Source: a virus
Reading direction: 5' to 3' (one strand)
IMG/VR virus record: IMGVR_UViG_3300033232_000021
Span: 1-31,707 of that record
Length of the DNA: 31,707 nucleotides
The notes beneath the pieces are model-generated. The model was not told the origin of the DNA. It ran no database searches and saw only the letters and a list, made by a program, of their open reading frames with translations. This document shows positions 540 through 31,707 of this stretch, in pieces. Position 1 is the stretch's first letter. Every line of letters starts with the position of its first letter. The translations under genes and the position numbers were made by a program.

Positions 540-570
540 AAAAAAAACCACGTCAATAAAGACGCGGTTT
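540..570 (-). terminator. Rho-independent terminator downstream of ORF 604-945.
   Basis: Minus strand reads AAACCGCGUC-UUUAUU-GACGUGGUUU followed by a U run. One stem pair is G.U. Confidence 0.7.
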
Positions 571-603
571 CATACGGCTGTGATTACCACTTATATAATT
601 CTA

Positions 604-945
604 TCAAATAGCACTGTCTGTGTCAAAACCACTCTCAGATCTATCTATCTTGTTTACTTCCCCCCAGATTATGATTTCATTCCCACCTAAGCTGTCTACG
701 TAGAATATAGGAAGCTTAATCGTTACGGGTATCTCTGGTGTTGTGGGGTTTGGTTCTGCCTGACCGGGTATCTTAAACATAAACATATCCCCGTCTGCAT
801 CTAATAGTCTTAGATACGAGGAGAGGTTGTTGCAGTTGTAAAATACTGACTGAACATTCAAACAATAATTAGACCCGAAGTTTGTTCTAACTTCTACTTT
901 CTTATCTCCTATACTTTTTTCTATTTTTACTTTAAATGGTTTCAT
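604..945 (-). CDS. Hypothetical protein (113 aa) immediately downstream of the repeat fibre. It could be a fibre-associated or assembly protein.
   Basis: ATG-initiated ORF. The call rests on position only. Confidence 0.55.
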   Translation of the reverse strand: MKPFKVKIEKSIGDKKVEVRTNFGSNYCLNVQSVFYNCNNLSSYLRLLDADGDMFMFKIPGQAEPNPTTPEIPVTIKLPIFYVDSLGGNEIIIWGEVNKIDRSESGFDTDSAI

Positions 946-18304: not shown

Positions 18305-18907
18305 TTACTCTAAACAGCTAACATATAGTCCGCTTTTATAGACTGACCACGCCTCCCAACTTCCTATTCCATCTCCCTCTACTCCATTTCCCCTGTCCCA
18401 AATCCAATATGCTACTTCCAAGTTCTTGTCTACGTTGAACATGTCTATTGCGGTGTACCCGAACTTCTCATAAATAGCTTTCTTCCAAGTAGCCCAATTT
18501 ATCTGTGCGATTCCTATATCACCTGTTTTAGATATAGCTTCCGGGTCTAAACCTGACTCACAACTAAATATCGCTATAGCAATCATTGAGGTCTTGTAGT
18601 CCCCCCACATTTGGACTATCTTCTGCTCGGTTGAAGTTAGATCCTCATATGGAGTTCCTACTACTACTATTTCCTTTACAGGTTCAGGTGCTTCTATTTC
18701 CTCAATCCTGTAAGGTAATTGGAATTGTAATGTTTGTTTAACTATATTTTGTTTAATTATTTGATGTCCGGCACCCCAATCCGCTACTTTTTTTATAGCC
18801 GTTGCTACACCAACTATTAAGACTATTAAGATAATTGCTACGAATACTGTCATTATTCCGTAATCGTTTTGTTTCTTCTTTGTTTTTTTAATAGGTATTA
18901 TTTCCAT
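18305..18907 (-). CDS. Membrane-anchored lytic transglycosylase (SLT domain, 200 aa).
   Basis: N-terminal TM segment MTVFVAIILIVLIVGVATAI. SLT motifs CESGLDP and GDIGIAQIN. Confidence 0.75.
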   Translation of the reverse strand: MEIIPIKKTKKKQNDYGIMTVFVAIILIVLIVGVATAIKKVADWGAGHQIIKQNIVKQTLQFQLPYRIEEIEAPEPVKEIVVVGTPYEDLTSTEQKIVQMWGDYKTSMIAIAIFSCESGLDPEAISKTGDIGIAQINWATWKKAIYEKFGYTAIDMFNVDKNLEVAYWIWDRGNGVEGDGIGSWEAWSVYKSGLYVSCLE

Positions 18908-19188
18908 GAGTAAAATTCACCTCCTTCATCGTAATCCCCGAACATATCCTTTATATCGTCCATGTCTGTTCTTTCTTCCGGGTCAAGGTCGTTTCTTACG
19001 TGGTCGCATTGCATACACTCACCAACGGAGTTCGTGAATTCGTATTCACTTCTTTTTGTGATTTTTTTTCCACAAGTAGGACACTTGTGTTCGTGGAGTA
19101 AAAATTTATTAAACTCTTCTTGTTGCTTGATGGTCTCAAGCGTTTCTTGACAAGCAGTAATTGCTTGGTCTATTAGGCTTTGTGTCAT
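18898..19188 (-). CDS. Zn-finger protein (96 aa).
   Basis: CPTCG...CMQCDH. SD is GAAAGG. Confidence 0.55.
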   Translation of the reverse strand: MTQSLIDQAITACQETLETIKQQEEFNKFLLHEHKCPTCGKKITKRSEYEFTNSVGECMQCDHVRNDLDPEERTDMDDIKDMFGDYDEGGEFYSWK

Positions 19189-19632: not shown

Positions 19633-19942
19633 CTTGTTCAAAATTGTAGTCTTCAATTTCCTGCTTAAACCTATTTACATTTACCATTCCTAATATATGT
19701 GAGTCGGTCGGTACAAAGTAGTTCCAATAACCGTTGTTTGCCTTTATATAGTAAAAAAAGAACACGGCTTTCTTCCCGGTGTTTTTCTTATAGTAGGCAA
19801 GTGCTGTGTTCTCACTTAGTATTTTTACCTTTTCAATTTCAAAAGTTTCATTCGTAAAGTTATACTCACGGTCAGGGTTTGAGAATCGTTGACCGACTTC
19901 TTTAACTTTTAGTTTTAGTTTGTCTGCTACATCTTTTTTCAT
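19625..19942 (-). CDS. Hypothetical protein (105 aa).
   Basis: ATG ORF, ATGA-coupled to the upstream gene. Confidence 0.55.
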   Translation of the reverse strand: MKKDVADKLKLKVKEVGQRFSNPDREYNFTNETFEIEKVKILSENTALAYYKKNTGKKAVFFFYYIKANNGYWNYFVPTDSHILGMVNVNRFKQEIEDYNFEQDE

Positions 19943-20301
19943 TTAAATTGGTGTCCGCATTTTGGACAAGTAATTAACTTCTTTTTCTTTCTTTCCCTTT
20001 TAACATCAGGAAGGTAATCGTTTACAACCTTGTGCCAACTAATAGCCTTACCTTCCGGGAGTTTATTCATATCAGGGAATTTTTCGTAAAATCTAACAGA
20101 TCTTGAAATAGTCATTTCCGATACTCCTGAATCTTCTGCTATCTGTTCGTAATTATCACGCTGTGATTCAACTATAAATCTTCCCACCTCGTGATAGGTT
20201 TCAAGTAAAGACCAACGAGAATTAAACTCGCCCTCAACGATGATGGCTTTTAACTCTTCTATAAATTCGGTGTATTCTTCGTTCCTTGCCAAATTACTCA
20301 C
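19939..20301 (-). CDS. wHTH DNA-binding protein with a C-terminal Zn-ribbon (120 aa).
   Basis: LLETYHEVGRFIVE...IAEDSGVSEMTISRSVRFYEKFP resembles the N-terminal DNA-binding region of YhcG/DUF1016 proteins. C-terminus has CPKCGHQF. GTG start. Confidence 0.55.
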   Translation of the reverse strand: MSNLARNEEYTEFIEELKAIIVEGEFNSRWSLLETYHEVGRFIVESQRDNYEQIAEDSGVSEMTISRSVRFYEKFPDMNKLPEGKAISWHKVVNDYLPDVKRERKKKKLITCPKCGHQFK

Positions 20302-20476: not shown

Positions 20477-20487
20477 TGGTATTATAT

Positions 20488-20703
20488 CTACTTTACAGGA
20501 AATGTCAATGGTACAGAACCATCAAAGATACCACCGGGATTATCCAAATCATACACCGCCAATTTTTTTACAACGGTTTCAGATCCTTCATCCCTTAAAG
20601 CAAGATGGTCTTTGTAGTAATTCCTAAACATCTTACCTAATTCCGTAGGTGGTACTTTACCTAAGTTTCTTTTAATTTCTTTTAAGTGTTCTTGAGCAGT
20701 CAT
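20488..20703 (-). CDS. Hypothetical first early protein (71 aa from ATG 20703).
   Basis: The ATG at 20703 gives MTAQEHLKEIK... The track start at 20715 is a TTG lying inside a DnaA box. Confidence 0.5.
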   Translation of the reverse strand: MTAQEHLKEIKRNLGKVPPTELGKMFRNYYKDHLALRDEGSETVVKKLAVYDLDNPGGIFDGSVPLTFPVK

Positions 20704-20705
20704 AC

Positions 20706-20782
20706 TTATCCACAAAAGTTATCCACAATTTCGGGGCGGTCTATTTACTTTAAATACAATATCCCTATAAAAGTTATCCACA
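20706..20782 (+). promoter_or_regulatory. Cluster of three perfect DnaA boxes (TTATCCACA), all in the same orientation.
   Basis: Exact 9-mers at 20706-20714, 20719-20727 and 20774-20782. A 7/9 match (TTATAAACA) is at 20801-20809. Confidence 0.7.
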
Positions 20783-20814
20783 ATGATATTGATCCCCTAC
20801 TTATAAACACCCCT

Positions 20815-20890
20815 ATTAAAACCTACTAATATATAAATATATCTTTATATAATAGATACATTTAAAAATGTAAATTTTAATAAACATTTA
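20815..20890. other. Very AT-rich tract. Candidate DNA-unwinding element.
   Basis: Sequence is ttaaaacctactaatatataaatatatctttatataatagatacatttaaaaatgtaaattttaataaacattta. It lies about 30 bp from the DnaA boxes. Confidence 0.4.
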
Positions 20891-21001: not shown

Positions 21002-21181
21002 TCATCTAATAAAGATGTCTTGCTTGTAATACTTACGTGCTTTCTTTATTAGACTTCTTTGTTCGTCACTTAGAATATATTTTCGGCGTTTTCGTTTACT
21101 AAACCTTTTTCTTTCCAGCCTTGCCTGTCATTTTAGTTCTTTTCTTTTTTCTTCTGATTCTTTTAAATACTCTTCGTTCAT
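21002..21181 (-). other. 59-sense-codon Lys/Arg-rich ORF interrupted by one in-frame UGA. May be noncoding.
   Basis: Reads MNEEYLKESEEKRKELK-TGA-QARLERKRFSKRKRRKYILSDEQRSLIKKARKYYKQDIFIR. The internal TGA is at 21128-21130 and is followed by C. Confidence 0.2.
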
Positions 21182-21221
21182 AACAAAAAGGACTCCTCGA
21201 GCCGAAGCTCAAAGAGTCCTT
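21181..21221 (-). terminator. Strong intrinsic terminator (T3) with a UUCG tetraloop.
   Basis: Minus strand reads AAGGACUC-UUU-GAGC-UUCG-GCUC-GAG-GAGUCCUU followed by UUUUGUU. Confidence 0.75.
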
Positions 21222-21226
21222 ATTGC

Positions 21227-21254
21227 TTATCACTCGTGTTGACATGTGTGATAA
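21227..21254. promoter_or_regulatory. Inverted repeat TTATCAC-N14-GTGATAA centred on the -35 box of P(+). Candidate operator.
   Basis: ttatcac at 21227-21233 and gtgataa at 21248-21254. Confidence 0.35.
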
Positions 21255-21268
21255 ACCTGTTGTATAAT
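21239..21268 (+). promoter_or_regulatory. Consensus sigma70-type promoter P(+), the only convincing plus-strand signal in the genome.
   Basis: TTGACA (21239-44), 18-nt spacer, TATAAT (21263-68). Confidence 0.6.
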
Positions 21269-21274
21269 TTGAAT

Positions 21275-21358
21275 AATTTATTCATAAGTAAATTAAATAA
21301 TATACCTCCTCGTGAGGTATGTCAAGAACCTCTCAATCAAATGAGGGGTTTTCTTGTT
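21275..21358 (+). ncRNA. Predicted small RNA of about 85 nt from P(+). It has an AU-rich 5' tail and two hairpins; the second is a terminator.
   Basis: Hairpin 1: atacctc/gaggtat (21302-21320) exposing CCUCCU. Hairpin 2: cctctca/tgagggg (21329-21348) followed by uuuucuuguu. No ORF with a usable RBS. Confidence 0.4.
21297..21325 (-). promoter_or_regulatory. Near-consensus promoter P(-), facing P(+).
   Basis: Minus strand reads TTGACA (21325-21320), 17-nt spacer, TATTAT (21302-21297). The spacer contains the 19-bp palindrome ATACCTC-ctcgt-GAGGTAT (21302-21320). Confidence 0.5.
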
Positions 21359-21363
21359 ATATG

Positions 21364-21396
21364 GGAAAAAAACACCGACCAGACGAGTCCGATCGG
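21364..21396 (-). terminator. Second minus-strand terminator (T2).
   Basis: Minus strand reads CCGAUC-GGACUCGUCU-GGUCGG followed by UGUUUUUUU. The stem has 6 bp including one G.U. Confidence 0.4.
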
Positions 21397-21483
21397 GGGC
21401 AGTACAAATTTTAATAGGTAAGCGTACATTTATGCCTTAGCAGTGTTTAGCTTTTACCATCTGTACACACCAGATAAATTTTA

Positions 21484-21527
21484 TCAAAAAAATTAGGGGA
21501 ATCAATATATAAAATATCAATTCCCCT
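21484..21527 (-). terminator. Intrinsic terminator (T1) ending the long late transcription unit.
   Basis: aggggaat pairs with attcccct (8 bp), extended by a further 4-bp stem. On the minus strand it is followed by AAUUUUUUUGA. Confidence 0.7.
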
Positions 21528-21540
21528 TGGGAGTCCGGTA

Positions 21541-22398
21541 CTAAGTTGAACAATGAATGTCCCAATGCTTTCCACCCAAATAAACATTTGCAACTCCGAT
21601 TCGTGTCGGATTGTAATTCTTCATTTGAGCATAGCTACCTTCATAGGCAAGAAAACCACCAGTTAAAACGGTGTATTGTTTTCTAACCTTGACTGTTTTG
21701 GCTCTGCGGTCATAGTATCGTTTATCTTCGGAGTCAACCATCAATGCATGAGTGTGTCCATAAAGATAGAGGTCTGCTTCTGTGTGTGTTGCTGTTCTTT
21801 TTGCACCCTGCATTTTAGTATGGTTATATCTACCACCTGTAGAACCATGCTGTGCGTGACATACATAGCTCTGATTACCTACTCTAAAGTAGATAAAGGA
21901 AGCATAACCACCATAAGGTATATCAAGGTATCTTGCTAACACACTTGATGGGTCAATCCCTGTATCTTTCCACACTCTCAACTCATGATTCCCTGTGAGA
22001 AGAACCAAAATTTGCTCTCTTAATGGGTAGAGCAGGTCTGCTAAAGTATCCAACTGTTCCTGTGGTGATTGTGTTTGTTCAACCCAACCTGAACCAACAG
22101 AACTTTTATTGGCAGACTCTAACAAATCTCCCATCAAGACAATCTTGTAATCCGGATTCTCTTTCAGGAACTTAATGGTATCGTGAAACTTTTTGACATC
22201 ACATGTAGGAGCACCTAAATGAACATCACCTAAAGGCACTACCCACAACTTGTCTGCATCAACTTCACAGCGTACAGACTTTACTTGGCGTTTGTTGGCT
22301 TTGCCTTCAAACTGTTCTAACAAGGTCATATCATTGTCAATGTCCATATCACTCTCCTCATAACATGATTCATCAATCATAGGCAGTTTACCCCTCAA
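21541..22398 (-). CDS. Calcineurin-like metallophosphoesterase (about 280 aa).
   Basis: Motifs in order: GDVHLG, GDLLE, GNHE, HGS and GHTH. The start is TTG at 22398 or ATG at 22380. Confidence 0.8.
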   Translation of the reverse strand: MRGKLPMIDESCYEESDMDIDNDMTLLEQFEGKANKRQVKSVRCEVDADKLWVVPLGDVHLGAPTCDVKKFHDTIKFLKENPDYKIVLMGDLLESANKSSVGSGWVEQTQSPQEQLDTLADLLYPLREQILVLLTGNHELRVWKDTGIDPSSVLARYLDIPYGGYASFIYFRVGNQSYVCHAQHGSTGGRYNHTKMQGAKRTATHTEADLYLYGHTHALMVDSEDKRYYDRRAKTVKVRKQYTVLTGGFLAYEGSYAQMKNYNPTRIGVANVYLGGKHWDIHCST

Positions 22399-30519: not shown

Positions 30520-31707
30520 TTATAAATCTAAACCTGATACATCAACGTAACCCTTTGGCATAGAAAGACCGGCTATATCAAAAGGGTCGTTTGTTATCCC
30601 ACTGTAGGGCTGTGGTTGCATACCACCTGTTTCGTCTATTGTTAGAGGTGTTCCGCCAAATCCGAAGACATCAAAATCATTTCTTTCTTCTAAGTCTGTT
30701 GGTAAGTTGCCTCTAAAATATTCCTCTGCACCCGCTCTTGCTGCCTCGTCTGAATAACCCTCATTCAGTAGTTCTCTGTAGTATTGAACCATTCCAAGAT
30801 AATCTGTACTTGAGGGCCCGCTGTATGACTTTGAGATAGAGAGTTTTTTTGCATAATCTTCCATCTCAGCCTGTCTTTGTGCTGACCACATATCTACTTG
30901 CTGTTTGTATTGTCTTGTTTCTGCGTCTAAACTTCTCATTGATTCAATAAATTGCATCTGAGTATTCTGAATAAGATTAGCAAGTGCGTTAGCTTTTTGT
31001 GCTGTAGCACCTCTTCTTTCAGCTTCTAATGCATCTAACTTCTGACCGAAGTATTGTGATATCTCCATTGCCTTACTTGCCTTGAATTGGTCTATCTGTA
31101 GAAGTTGCTCACCTGCTATTTGATTGACTTCGTTTATCTTACTTCCAATTTCTTTTATAGCTTTGTTTCTTGTATCAAGAACCCCTGATCTGCTCTGTTG
31201 TGCAGCTCTTGAAAGCATCTCACTCATTTGTCCTGATGCTGAAGAATCTGCGGCACCTCTTACACCTAAATAACGACCTGCCGCTGTAAGTGAGTTTCTG
31301 ATATCCTCTTCTAACGATCTTAAAGATTTGGTAGCGAGATTTTCTTGCTCTCCTTTTTGTGACTCAAGTCCTGTTACGCCTCTTGCTCTTTGTGATTCAA
31401 CAATACCTGCTTGTGAACCTGCCATTTGGTCTATAAAACCCAACATCTCCTCCTTTTGTTCAGGGAGTAGTCCTGCCATCTGGTCTAATTGTGAAAATAC
31501 ATCCGAATAGCCCGATTCTATCTCCTCTCTTATTTTTCTTTCCATTTCTTCAATTCTTTTTCTTTCTGCTTCCTCCGCTGCTTTTCTTTCTGCTTCTGCT
31601 TGTTCTTTCAATTCTTCTGGTGTTGGTCCTGATGTACCACTTGTTGTACCACCTGACGTACTTGTTGTACCACCTGACGTACTTGTTGTACCACCTGACG
31701 TACTTGT
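30520..31707 (-). CDS. Body of the junction-spanning gene (451 aa in total; start codon at 295). Coiled-coil-rich internal virion/ejection-like protein.
   Basis: The ORF stays open to the window end, and 31581-31707 duplicates 1-127. Glu/Lys/Ala-rich heptads (EELKEQAEAERKAAEEAERKRIEEMERK). Confidence 0.7.
   Translation of the reverse strand, partial: TSTSGGTTSTSGGTTSTSGGTTSGTSGPTPEELKEQAEAERKAAEEAERKRIEEMERKIREEIESGYSDVFSQLDQMAGLLPEQKEEMLGFIDQMAGSQAGIVESQRARGVTGLESQKGEQENLATKSLRSLEEDIRNSLTAAGRYLGVRGAADSSASGQMSEMLSRAAQQSRSGVLDTRNKAIKEIGSKINEVNQIAGEQLLQIDQFKASKAMEISQYFGQKLDALEAERRGATAQKANALANLIQNTQMQFIESMRSLDAETRQYKQQVDMWSAQRQAEMEDYAKKLSISKSYSGPSSTDYLGMVQYYRELLNEGYSDEAARAGAEEYFRGNLPTDLEERNDFDVFGFGGTPLTIDETGGMQPQPYSGITNDPFDIAGLSMPKGYVDVSGLDL

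Follow-up and report, generated by a model that had tools for sequence, protein, structure and literature searches.

The virus genome deposited in IMG/VR as IMGVR_UViG_3300033232_000021, analysed here over its full 31,707 nt and called the window below, carries a cassette of two promoters that face each other at the junction of its late and early genes. One of them, P(-), fires forward into the early region, and the other, P(+), fires backward. We read this cassette as a conserved switch that works by promoter competition and transcriptional interference, with P(+) restraining P(-), and we give this reading a probability of about 0.5. Each of the two predicted transcripts crosses the opposing promoter and then stops at an intrinsic terminator of its own. 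The coordinates of all features are collected in Table 1.

Table 1. Features of the promoter cassette and of other elements named in the text. Positions refer to the window unless a relative is given.
Feature	Position	Strand	Details
P(+), backward promoter	21239-21268	+	TTGACA-18-TATAAT, 12/12 to consensus
P(-), forward promoter, first of the early region	21325-21297	-	TTGACA-17-TATTAT, 11/12
Overlap of predicted start regions	21275-21289	.	Inferred from -10 positions; polymerase footprints would clash
Backward RNA (predicted)	21275-21358	+	~80-85 nt, three hairpins, no conserved open reading frame (ORF)
T(+), intrinsic terminator of the backward RNA	21323-21358	+	Begins inside or directly after the P(-) -35 box
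Forward leader RNA (predicted)	21182-21289	-	~107 nt, ends at T3
T3, intrinsic terminator	21182-21221	-	15-bp stem with UUCG loop at 21221-21188, then UUUUUGUU to 21182
Inverted repeat TTATCAC-N14-GTGATAA	21227-21254	.	Brackets the P(+) -35 box; single copy in genome
Palindrome ATACCTC-N5-GAGGTAT	21302-21320	.	19 bp, in the P(-) spacer; forms the middle hairpin of the backward RNA
Homologue of a 61-aa very basic protein (L144, L145, L148)	21002-21181	-	First ORF after T3
Three perfect DnaA boxes (TTATCCACA)	20706-20782	+	Beside AT-rich stretch 20810-20880
e71, conserved 71-aa early gene	20488-20703	-	True start 20703
P_E2, second early promoter	20481-20508	-	TTGACA-16-TATAAT, at 3' end of e71, no terminator after it
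~230-nt stretch	L142:1045-1310, L146:2650-2875, L174:2325-2565, L501:2950-3190		Between T3 and e71
T1, late-operon terminator after the metallophosphatase gene	21495-21527	-	Stem covaries among lineages
Neighbouring structured-RNA unit	21364-21505	-	Extended -10 promoter 21505-21478, RNA ~105 nt, ends at T2 (21396-21375)
Second promoter-terminator-gene unit, upstream of the tail genes	544-626	-	TTGACA-17-TG-TAGAAT at 626-598

P(+) is the only strong promoter in the window that runs against the direction of all genes. Across the whole 31.7-kb genome there are four sites matching the sigma-70 consensus at 11/12 or better, and three of them fall within 850 bp at this locus. Dinucleotide-preserving shuffles contained 1.3 ± 1.2 such sites; among 300 of them, one produced a convergent pair at most 150 bp apart and none placed three sites within 1 kb. 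The promoter pair is therefore beyond a chance match. An earlier reading of the sequence alone (the sequence-only reading) had described both promoters and had placed their starts about 16 nt apart; their sequences, spacers and coordinates were confirmed, and both promoters are kept across six lineages. From the -10 positions we predict starts at 21275 on the plus strand and at 21289/90 on the minus strand, so that the 5' ends of the two RNAs would overlap by ~15-16 nt. At the level of sequence prediction, then, the locus has the two face-to-face sigma-70 promoters with overlapping transcripts that characterize a convergent-promoter switch, and such a switch is the best reading of its geometry.

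The six lineages carrying the cassette are the window and five relatives from metagenomes (L142, L146, L149, L174 and L501); L150-152 are identical to L149 at the cassette, and L493-496 are 99.5-95% identical to L174. Nucleotide identity to the window was 67-75% for L142, L146, L149 and L174, with L501 the most distant. Carriers were found via homologues of e71 and of a 120-amino-acid early protein, and L174 was found via a DNA pattern scan. Pattern scans of this kind (for paired DnaA boxes, the T(+) tail followed by a -35 box, the promoter geometry and the neighbouring small RNA) gave mostly chance matches and this one true relative. The forward promoter scored 10-11/12 in all six lineages, always with a 17-bp spacer. 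TTGAC is invariant in its -35 box (TTGACA in five lineages, TTGACT in L501), and its -10 box varies among TATTAT, TATAGT, TAATAT and TATATT. The backward promoter matched at 12/12 in five lineages, with spacers of 17-18 bp, and reads TTGCAT-17-TATAAT in L142. The two -10 boxes are separated by 25-28 bp in five lineages and by 31 bp in L501, giving a predicted start overlap of 13-19 nt.

The terminators are held in place as closely as the promoters. T(+) consists of a hairpin at 21325-21352 followed by UUUUCUUGUU to ~21358, and this hairpin begins inside or beside the forward -35 box in every lineage; in L501 its loop encloses the -35 box. T3 likewise comes within a few bases of the backward promoter in every lineage. 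Predicted RNA lengths are correspondingly narrow, at 80-92 nt for the backward RNA and 105-125 nt for the forward leader, and shuffled sequence folds far less well than either window RNA (z = -5.6 for the backward RNA and -6.7 for the leader). In an alignment of five lineages, compensatory double changes occurred in 4/12 pairs of the T(+) stem, where almost no pair was broken, and in 5/20 pairs of the T3 stem. The UUCG loop of T3 was kept in four of these five; T3 is longer in L149 and L501, and two further T3 variants come from L144 and L148. These observations bear out most of what had been said of the two transcripts: that the plus-strand RNA meets a hairpin and U tract and contains no translatable ORF, that the minus-strand RNA runs into a strong UUCG-loop terminator, and that covariation would be worth seeking in homologous control regions, where both terminator stems did show it. 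Judged from this comparison, the promoters, both terminators and the inverted repeat described below are under selection.

The backward RNA itself is a different matter. Apart from its own terminator and the P(-) hexamers, no part of its sequence is conserved. Three lineages lack the middle hairpin, and no ORF within this RNA is kept in relatives; a 31-aa candidate on the plus strand at 21319-21414 was dropped for want of conservation. Because the promoters, their spacing and the placement of the terminators are conserved but the sequence of the backward RNA is not, we favour an effect of transcription in cis over a seed-based small RNA. The same lack of conserved sequence gives no support to RNA immunity of the P4 CI or P1 c4 type, which the sequence-only reading had offered as a parallel.

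On the forward strand, neither the minimum-free-energy nor the centroid fold of any lineage's leader contained a structure competing with T3; all form T3. An ATG lies 4-6 nt from the predicted P(-) start in five of the six lineages and is absent from L501. Its frame spans 21-40 codons and ends at or inside T3, and, with a single exception, the other frames close immediately. A type I toxin or leader peptide beginning at this ATG was considered and rejected, given that the peptides are not hydrophobic, lack a Shine-Dalgarno sequence, are unrelated to one another and have no counterpart in L501; a leader peptide is a minor possibility. We also observed that the 5' arm of T3 (21205-21218 on the minus strand) reads CUCUUUGAG, with ACUCUCUAAC as the L142 version. 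This bears a short, tentative resemblance to the boxA elements of ribosomal RNA antitermination.

Two symmetric elements had been proposed as operators, one in each promoter, and they fared differently. The inverted repeat over the P(+) -35 box is real, and an inverted repeat stands at that place in all six lineages. Its core, TATCAC/GTGATA, is unchanged in five of them but for one A-to-G change in L174 that leaves a U-G pair in the forward RNA, and the arms are separated by N14 in the window and N13 in four relatives. In L501, GCACT..AGTGC replaces the repeat at the same position. The element may be either a DNA operator or a hairpin in the forward leader RNA. Strictly invariant arms amid variable flanks fit a protein site, and the letters of L501 fit either. 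The 19-bp palindrome in the P(-) spacer is present as described, but it is specific to three of the six lineages and finds no support as a general operator: the palindrome and its CCUCC motif occur only in the window, L142 and L146, and the spacers of L149, L174 and L501 are unrelated. Neither element has a further copy in the genome. The related suggestion that the plus RNA exposes a CCUCCU capable of pairing with Shine-Dalgarno sequences was not upheld, as this motif is mostly buried in the stem of the middle hairpin in the window fold and is absent from three of the six lineages.

What lies beyond T3 varies among lineages, as three unrelated modules separate T3 from e71. The first (window, L144, L145, L148) has a basic ORF, a structured stretch, an AT-rich stretch and perfect DnaA boxes; the second (L142, L146, L174, L501) is a conserved non-coding stretch of ~230 nt without an ORF; and the third (L149) is a gene of 67 amino acids. 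The ~230-nt stretch is predicted to form several hairpins whose stems differ among lineages, and it has no Rfam match. In the window, an ATG at 21181 directly follows the U tract of T3, and the GAGGAG Shine-Dalgarno sequence of the ORF starting there sits in the 3' arm of T3; this placement recurs for the ORF after T3 in L144, L148 and L149. In the window, this basic-protein ORF has an in-frame TGA at 21130-21128 where relatives have Arg, which could reflect a pseudogene, a read-through site or an assembly error.

No consistent promoter was found across lineages between T3 and the start of e71. P_E2, by contrast, is conserved in all lineages, at 12/12 in five loci, 11/12 in L149 and L501 and 9/12 in L174. 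It follows that reading through T3 would be the only route to e71 and the variable module, and that the rest of the early operon would not need it. The second gene served by P_E2 encodes the 120-amino-acid protein (19939-20301), which is helical with a C-terminal zinc ribbon (model predicted local distance difference test score, pLDDT, 86.6). It had no significant PDB match, and its best weak matches were helix-turn-helix repressor domains. Another early protein, of 96 amino acids (18898-19188, minus strand), gave a sub-threshold match to the TraR/DksA-type C4 zinc-finger family (E = 0.0056). Members of this family bind RNA polymerase.

From this arrangement we infer the following course of events, in which promoter activity, interference, read-through and the regulator are all read from sequence. 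With a start overlap of only 13-19 nt, a polymerase at one promoter would exclude a polymerase from the other, and two open complexes could not coexist. A polymerase that escaped would sweep the whole opposing promoter before halting at its own terminator. P(+) would thus limit the firing of P(-) in cis through promoter competition, occlusion and sitting-duck interference, with no need for a diffusible RNA. Transcripts that did start at P(-) would yield the ~107-nt leader and end at T3, which would also hide the ribosome-binding site of the next ORF. T3 would therefore act as an attenuator of both transcription and translation, and only read-through would reach the variable module and e71. The inverted repeat at the P(+) -35 box is the likely control point, where a bound factor would shut P(+) and so turn P(-) on. 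This factor may be a protein made from the unattenuated P_E2, and the 120-amino-acid protein is a candidate. Face-to-face promoters can indeed compete directly, and a repressor can activate by relieving interference (PMC2760811, PMC5423467).

Several points weigh against this switch. The start sites, the strengths of the promoters and the efficiencies of the terminators are all predicted, and the promoter scores out of 12 were taken against sigma-70-type consensus hexamers. The backward -35 box is degraded to TTGCAT in L142, so strong backward firing is not indispensable. T3 looks so strong that P(-) may yield mostly short RNA regardless of P(+). The N13/N14 difference and the U-G change in the inverted repeat are compatible with an RNA hairpin as well as with an operator. 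Finally, the matches that make the 120-amino-acid protein a regulator candidate are not significant.

The gene content of the phage bears on what such a switch might control. The window is an entire contig of the Joint Genome Institute (JGI), and its ends repeat each other over ~127 nt (1-127 and 31581-31707); it therefore represents a complete genome of ~31.6 kb that is circular, circularly permuted or terminally redundant. The end repeat falls in a gene whose tandem 21-nt repeats (GGTGGTACAACAAGTACGTCA) code for Ser/Thr/Gly-rich units. All genes of the window lie on the minus strand. A first block of tail genes, an amidase, small ORFs and a metallophosphatase (ending at 21541) is followed by the 825-nt non-coding stretch with the promoter pair and then by the small early ORFs, after which come a transglycosylase, a PD-(D/E)XK nuclease, terminase, portal, capsid, and sugar- and methyl-transferases. 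Searches of the complete genome against Pfam, PHROGs and NCBIfam detected no integrase or repressor and recognised no replication protein, DNA polymerase, helicase, primase, initiator or RNA polymerase. There are no tRNAs in the window, Rfam gave no match for the window or its relatives, and nucleotide searches of cultured phages gave no match to the window. The phage looks lytic and, as far as its gene content indicates, reliant on host polymerases.

This content leads to a possible, if unlikely, account in which P(-) corresponds to promoter PE1 in lactococcal phages of the c2 type, its RNA, whether ended at T3 or reading through, activates or primes replication, and P(+) provides copy or timing control. 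It would suit a complete 31.6-kb genome in which no replication protein or RNA polymerase is recognised. The interval from P(-)/T3 to P_E2 contains three perfect DnaA boxes with an AT-rich stretch, which are kept in L144, L145 and L148 and mark a putative origin or DnaA-controlled region; T3 stands ahead of this region and of the early genes, as the sequence-only reading had it. Only five perfect DnaA boxes occur genome-wide, and three are clustered here. The occurrence of at least three unrelated versions of the stretch from T3 to e71 points the same way. The ceduovirus (c2-type) origin likewise lies between the first two early promoters and contains no ORF; it needs no phage protein to work, and three unrelated types of it exist (PMC7150918, section 3.5). 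For the essential early transcript, PMC7150918 refers to Schiemann et al. 2004. The two loci resemble each other in that early promoters flank unrelated, interchangeable stretches in genomes without recognisable replication genes. However, the c2 origin has no ORF, leader terminator or opposed promoter, whereas here e71, and in some lineages an ORF of 61-67 amino acids, lies inside the supposed origin. A replication role here is putative. DnaA boxes, numbering three in the window and in L144 and L145 and two in L148, are missing from four lineages that do bear the cassette (L142, L146, L149 and L174). Moreover, the boxes abut the start codon of e71 and could just regulate that gene.

An origin transcript would be compatible with an interference switch and differs from it only in what the switch gates. 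Taken together, the two suggest a self-contained timing device built of host-polymerase signals, in which mutually exclusive promoters, each closed off by a terminator of its own, would gate transcription into interchangeable origin modules (the DnaA-box module or the ~230-nt non-coding one) of phages without replication genes. We regard this combination as speculative and improbable. If it were true, phages that carry no replication genes could nonetheless control the firing of their origins.

Processive antitermination is another improbable explanation of why a strong promoter should meet a strong terminator within ~107 nt, directly before genes, and why this arrangement should be conserved. 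P(-) and T3 would then form a unit like PR'-tR' of lambda or like a nut site, the short RNA would be made constitutively, an early protein or the leader hairpin would let polymerase pass T3, and P(+) would be secondary. The hairpin directly upstream of T3 is conserved, the leader has no alternative antiterminator fold, so that read-through would need a factor, and a second promoter-terminator-gene unit stands ahead of the tail genes (626-598, 571-544). The palindrome in the P(-) spacer also sits where lambda Q, which binds in the spacer region of PR', would be expected. However, this palindrome is missing in three lineages, and Pfam, PHROGs and NCBIfam detected no Q, N or other antiterminator family, leaving an unrecognised factor possible; Rfam gave no match to nut or put RNA. 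Antitermination also leaves a conserved perfect backward promoter and its terminator unexplained.

We think it quite improbable that the backward RNA acts as an antisense RNA, pairing either with the first 13-19 nt of the P(-) leader or with late transcripts that read through T1 and T2. The 5' ends of the two RNAs are complementary in every lineage, the backward RNA is predicted to be compact, terminated and well folded, and pairing near the P(-) start could block a near-leaderless leader ORF at the ATG kept in five lineages. Yet the overlap is short, almost pure A/U and free of any Shine-Dalgarno sequence, and the backward RNA presents no conserved loop or seed. L501 has neither the ATG nor its ORF, and conservation does not extend to the peptide. 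Attenuation by a countertranscript would need long complementarity and an alternative leader fold, and neither was found. A mere insulator is very improbable; in it, T1, T2, T(+), T3 and the backward promoter would keep late read-through, arising on a template that is circular or concatemeric, out of the early region. It would suit the crowding of four terminators (three forward, one backward) into 350 bp where late genes meet early ones, in a circular genome with one-way genes. However, P(-) lies between T2 and T3, so that T3 ends transcripts of P(-) itself, and an insulator has no need of a perfect backward promoter, a conserved inverted repeat or a precisely conserved start overlap.

The cassette, as a promoter-competition switch, would work like known convergent-promoter systems, yet by its sequence it fails the defining features of each family. 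The switches of phages 186 and P2 decide between lysis and lysogeny in temperate phages; the 186 promoters are ~62 bp apart, and each promoter drives a regulator gene. A developmental switch of this type had been the first parallel drawn in the sequence-only reading, and it finds no support in a complete genome with one-way genes and no detected integrase or repressor, where neither transcript encodes a regulator. The cassette further differs from these switches in its 13-19-nt start overlap and in having a terminator on each side. What it shares with 186 pR/pL and P2 Pe/Pc is a pair of convergent phage promoters with overlapping transcripts, in an arrangement where interference is relieved by repressing the interfering promoter (PMC5423467, PMC3675496). 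The Ecl18kI restriction-modification system is similar in its close face-to-face promoters, which compete directly for polymerase such that blocking one turns the other on (PMC2760811). In that system, however, both promoters drive protein genes and the methyltransferase regulator and its operator are known, whereas here the products are short, non-coding, terminated RNAs.

Closer in layout are prgQ/prgX of the Enterococcus faecalis plasmid pCF10 and RnaG/icsA of Shigella, which combine convergent promoters, a leader terminator and a small counter-transcript (PMC5423467, PMC2879508). In those systems, more than 100 nt of the leader are covered by the antisense RNA, which induces folding of the terminator, whereas the cassette has an overlap of 13-19 nt and a T3 that is predicted to form unaided. 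More generally, of the elements of countertranscript attenuation (as in pT181, pIP501, prgQ/Anti-Q and RnaG), the leader terminator is present in the cassette, but the long complementarity and the switchable fold are not. The pIN/pOUT pair of IS10 and Pant/Psar of P22 are opposed promoters with 5'-overlapping transcripts, one of which is a small, stable, terminated RNA of ~70 nt. The cassette resembles them in its 5' overlap and in a small terminated RNA that is predicted to fold stably. However, their overlap covers the ribosome-binding site of the target, and here there is no Shine-Dalgarno sequence and no conserved pairing loop. In lambda, the strong, constitutive PR' promoter gives 6S RNA, a transcript that stops at tR' after ~100-200 nt, ahead of the genes under the control of this promoter. 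A promoter-proximal terminated transcript before genes is common to both loci, but no Q-like protein or qut-type element could be demonstrated here, and lambda has no opposed promoter inside its leader. The cassette is thus best described as a minimal, doubly terminated, non-coding variant of the convergent-promoter arrangement in a group of uncultured lytic phages.

Much is known of regulation by interference between opposed promoters in a few temperate phages, plasmids and restriction systems. The form found here is stripped down to short terminated RNAs with no regulator gene in cis, in what looks like a lytic phage, and it has been kept through substantial divergence. If the interference switch is real, it would be a compact natural inverter or toggle of only ~180 bp and a well-defined case in which promoter competition and antisense pairing could be told apart. 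It would also offer a route into how small, host-polymerase-dependent phages order early events, perhaps including replication. Two more conserved non-coding elements, the ~105-nt RNA and the ~230-nt module, stand beside the cassette, and neither matches Rfam.

The ~105-nt RNA is transcribed, by prediction, from a promoter of the form TTGATT-16-TG-TAAAAT that overlaps the 3' arm of T1. This promoter, the sequence blocks UGGUGUGUA, GCUAAACAC, GUAYGCUUA and UACUGCCC, and the RNA structure are kept in all lineages, with compensatory changes in 10/29 pairs. Pairing of this RNA with the leader or the backward RNA was considered and set aside, as the duplex energies were no better than those of shuffled sequence. 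In the second promoter-terminator-gene unit, a strong terminator (571-544) follows the promoter by ~20 nt and is itself followed by AGGAGG and a gene at 522. The TTTGATAGAATTATAT of this unit matches, letter for letter, the promoter that L149 has for the neighbouring small RNA.

In L146 (1446-2291), L149 (1365-2210), L174 and L493, the metallophosphatase gene that precedes the cassette is of another sequence family. A tblastn search of these lineages with the window metallophosphatase found nothing at E <= 1e-4, and Pfam still calls Metallophos; conservation of the cassette therefore spans a mosaic boundary. Relatives identified through the metallophosphatase (L001-L022) have only T1 in common with the window, and their intergenic regions do not align. 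L499 and L503, distant carriers of the 120-amino-acid protein, are also without the cassette. In the cassette-less distant relative L020 (2900-3001), and also in L015 and L018, a backward promoter of 11/12 (TTGACA-16-TATACT) nevertheless occurs at the late/early junction. It lies directly ahead of a long UUCG-loop hairpin and U tract, giving a predicted backward RNA of ~55 nt.

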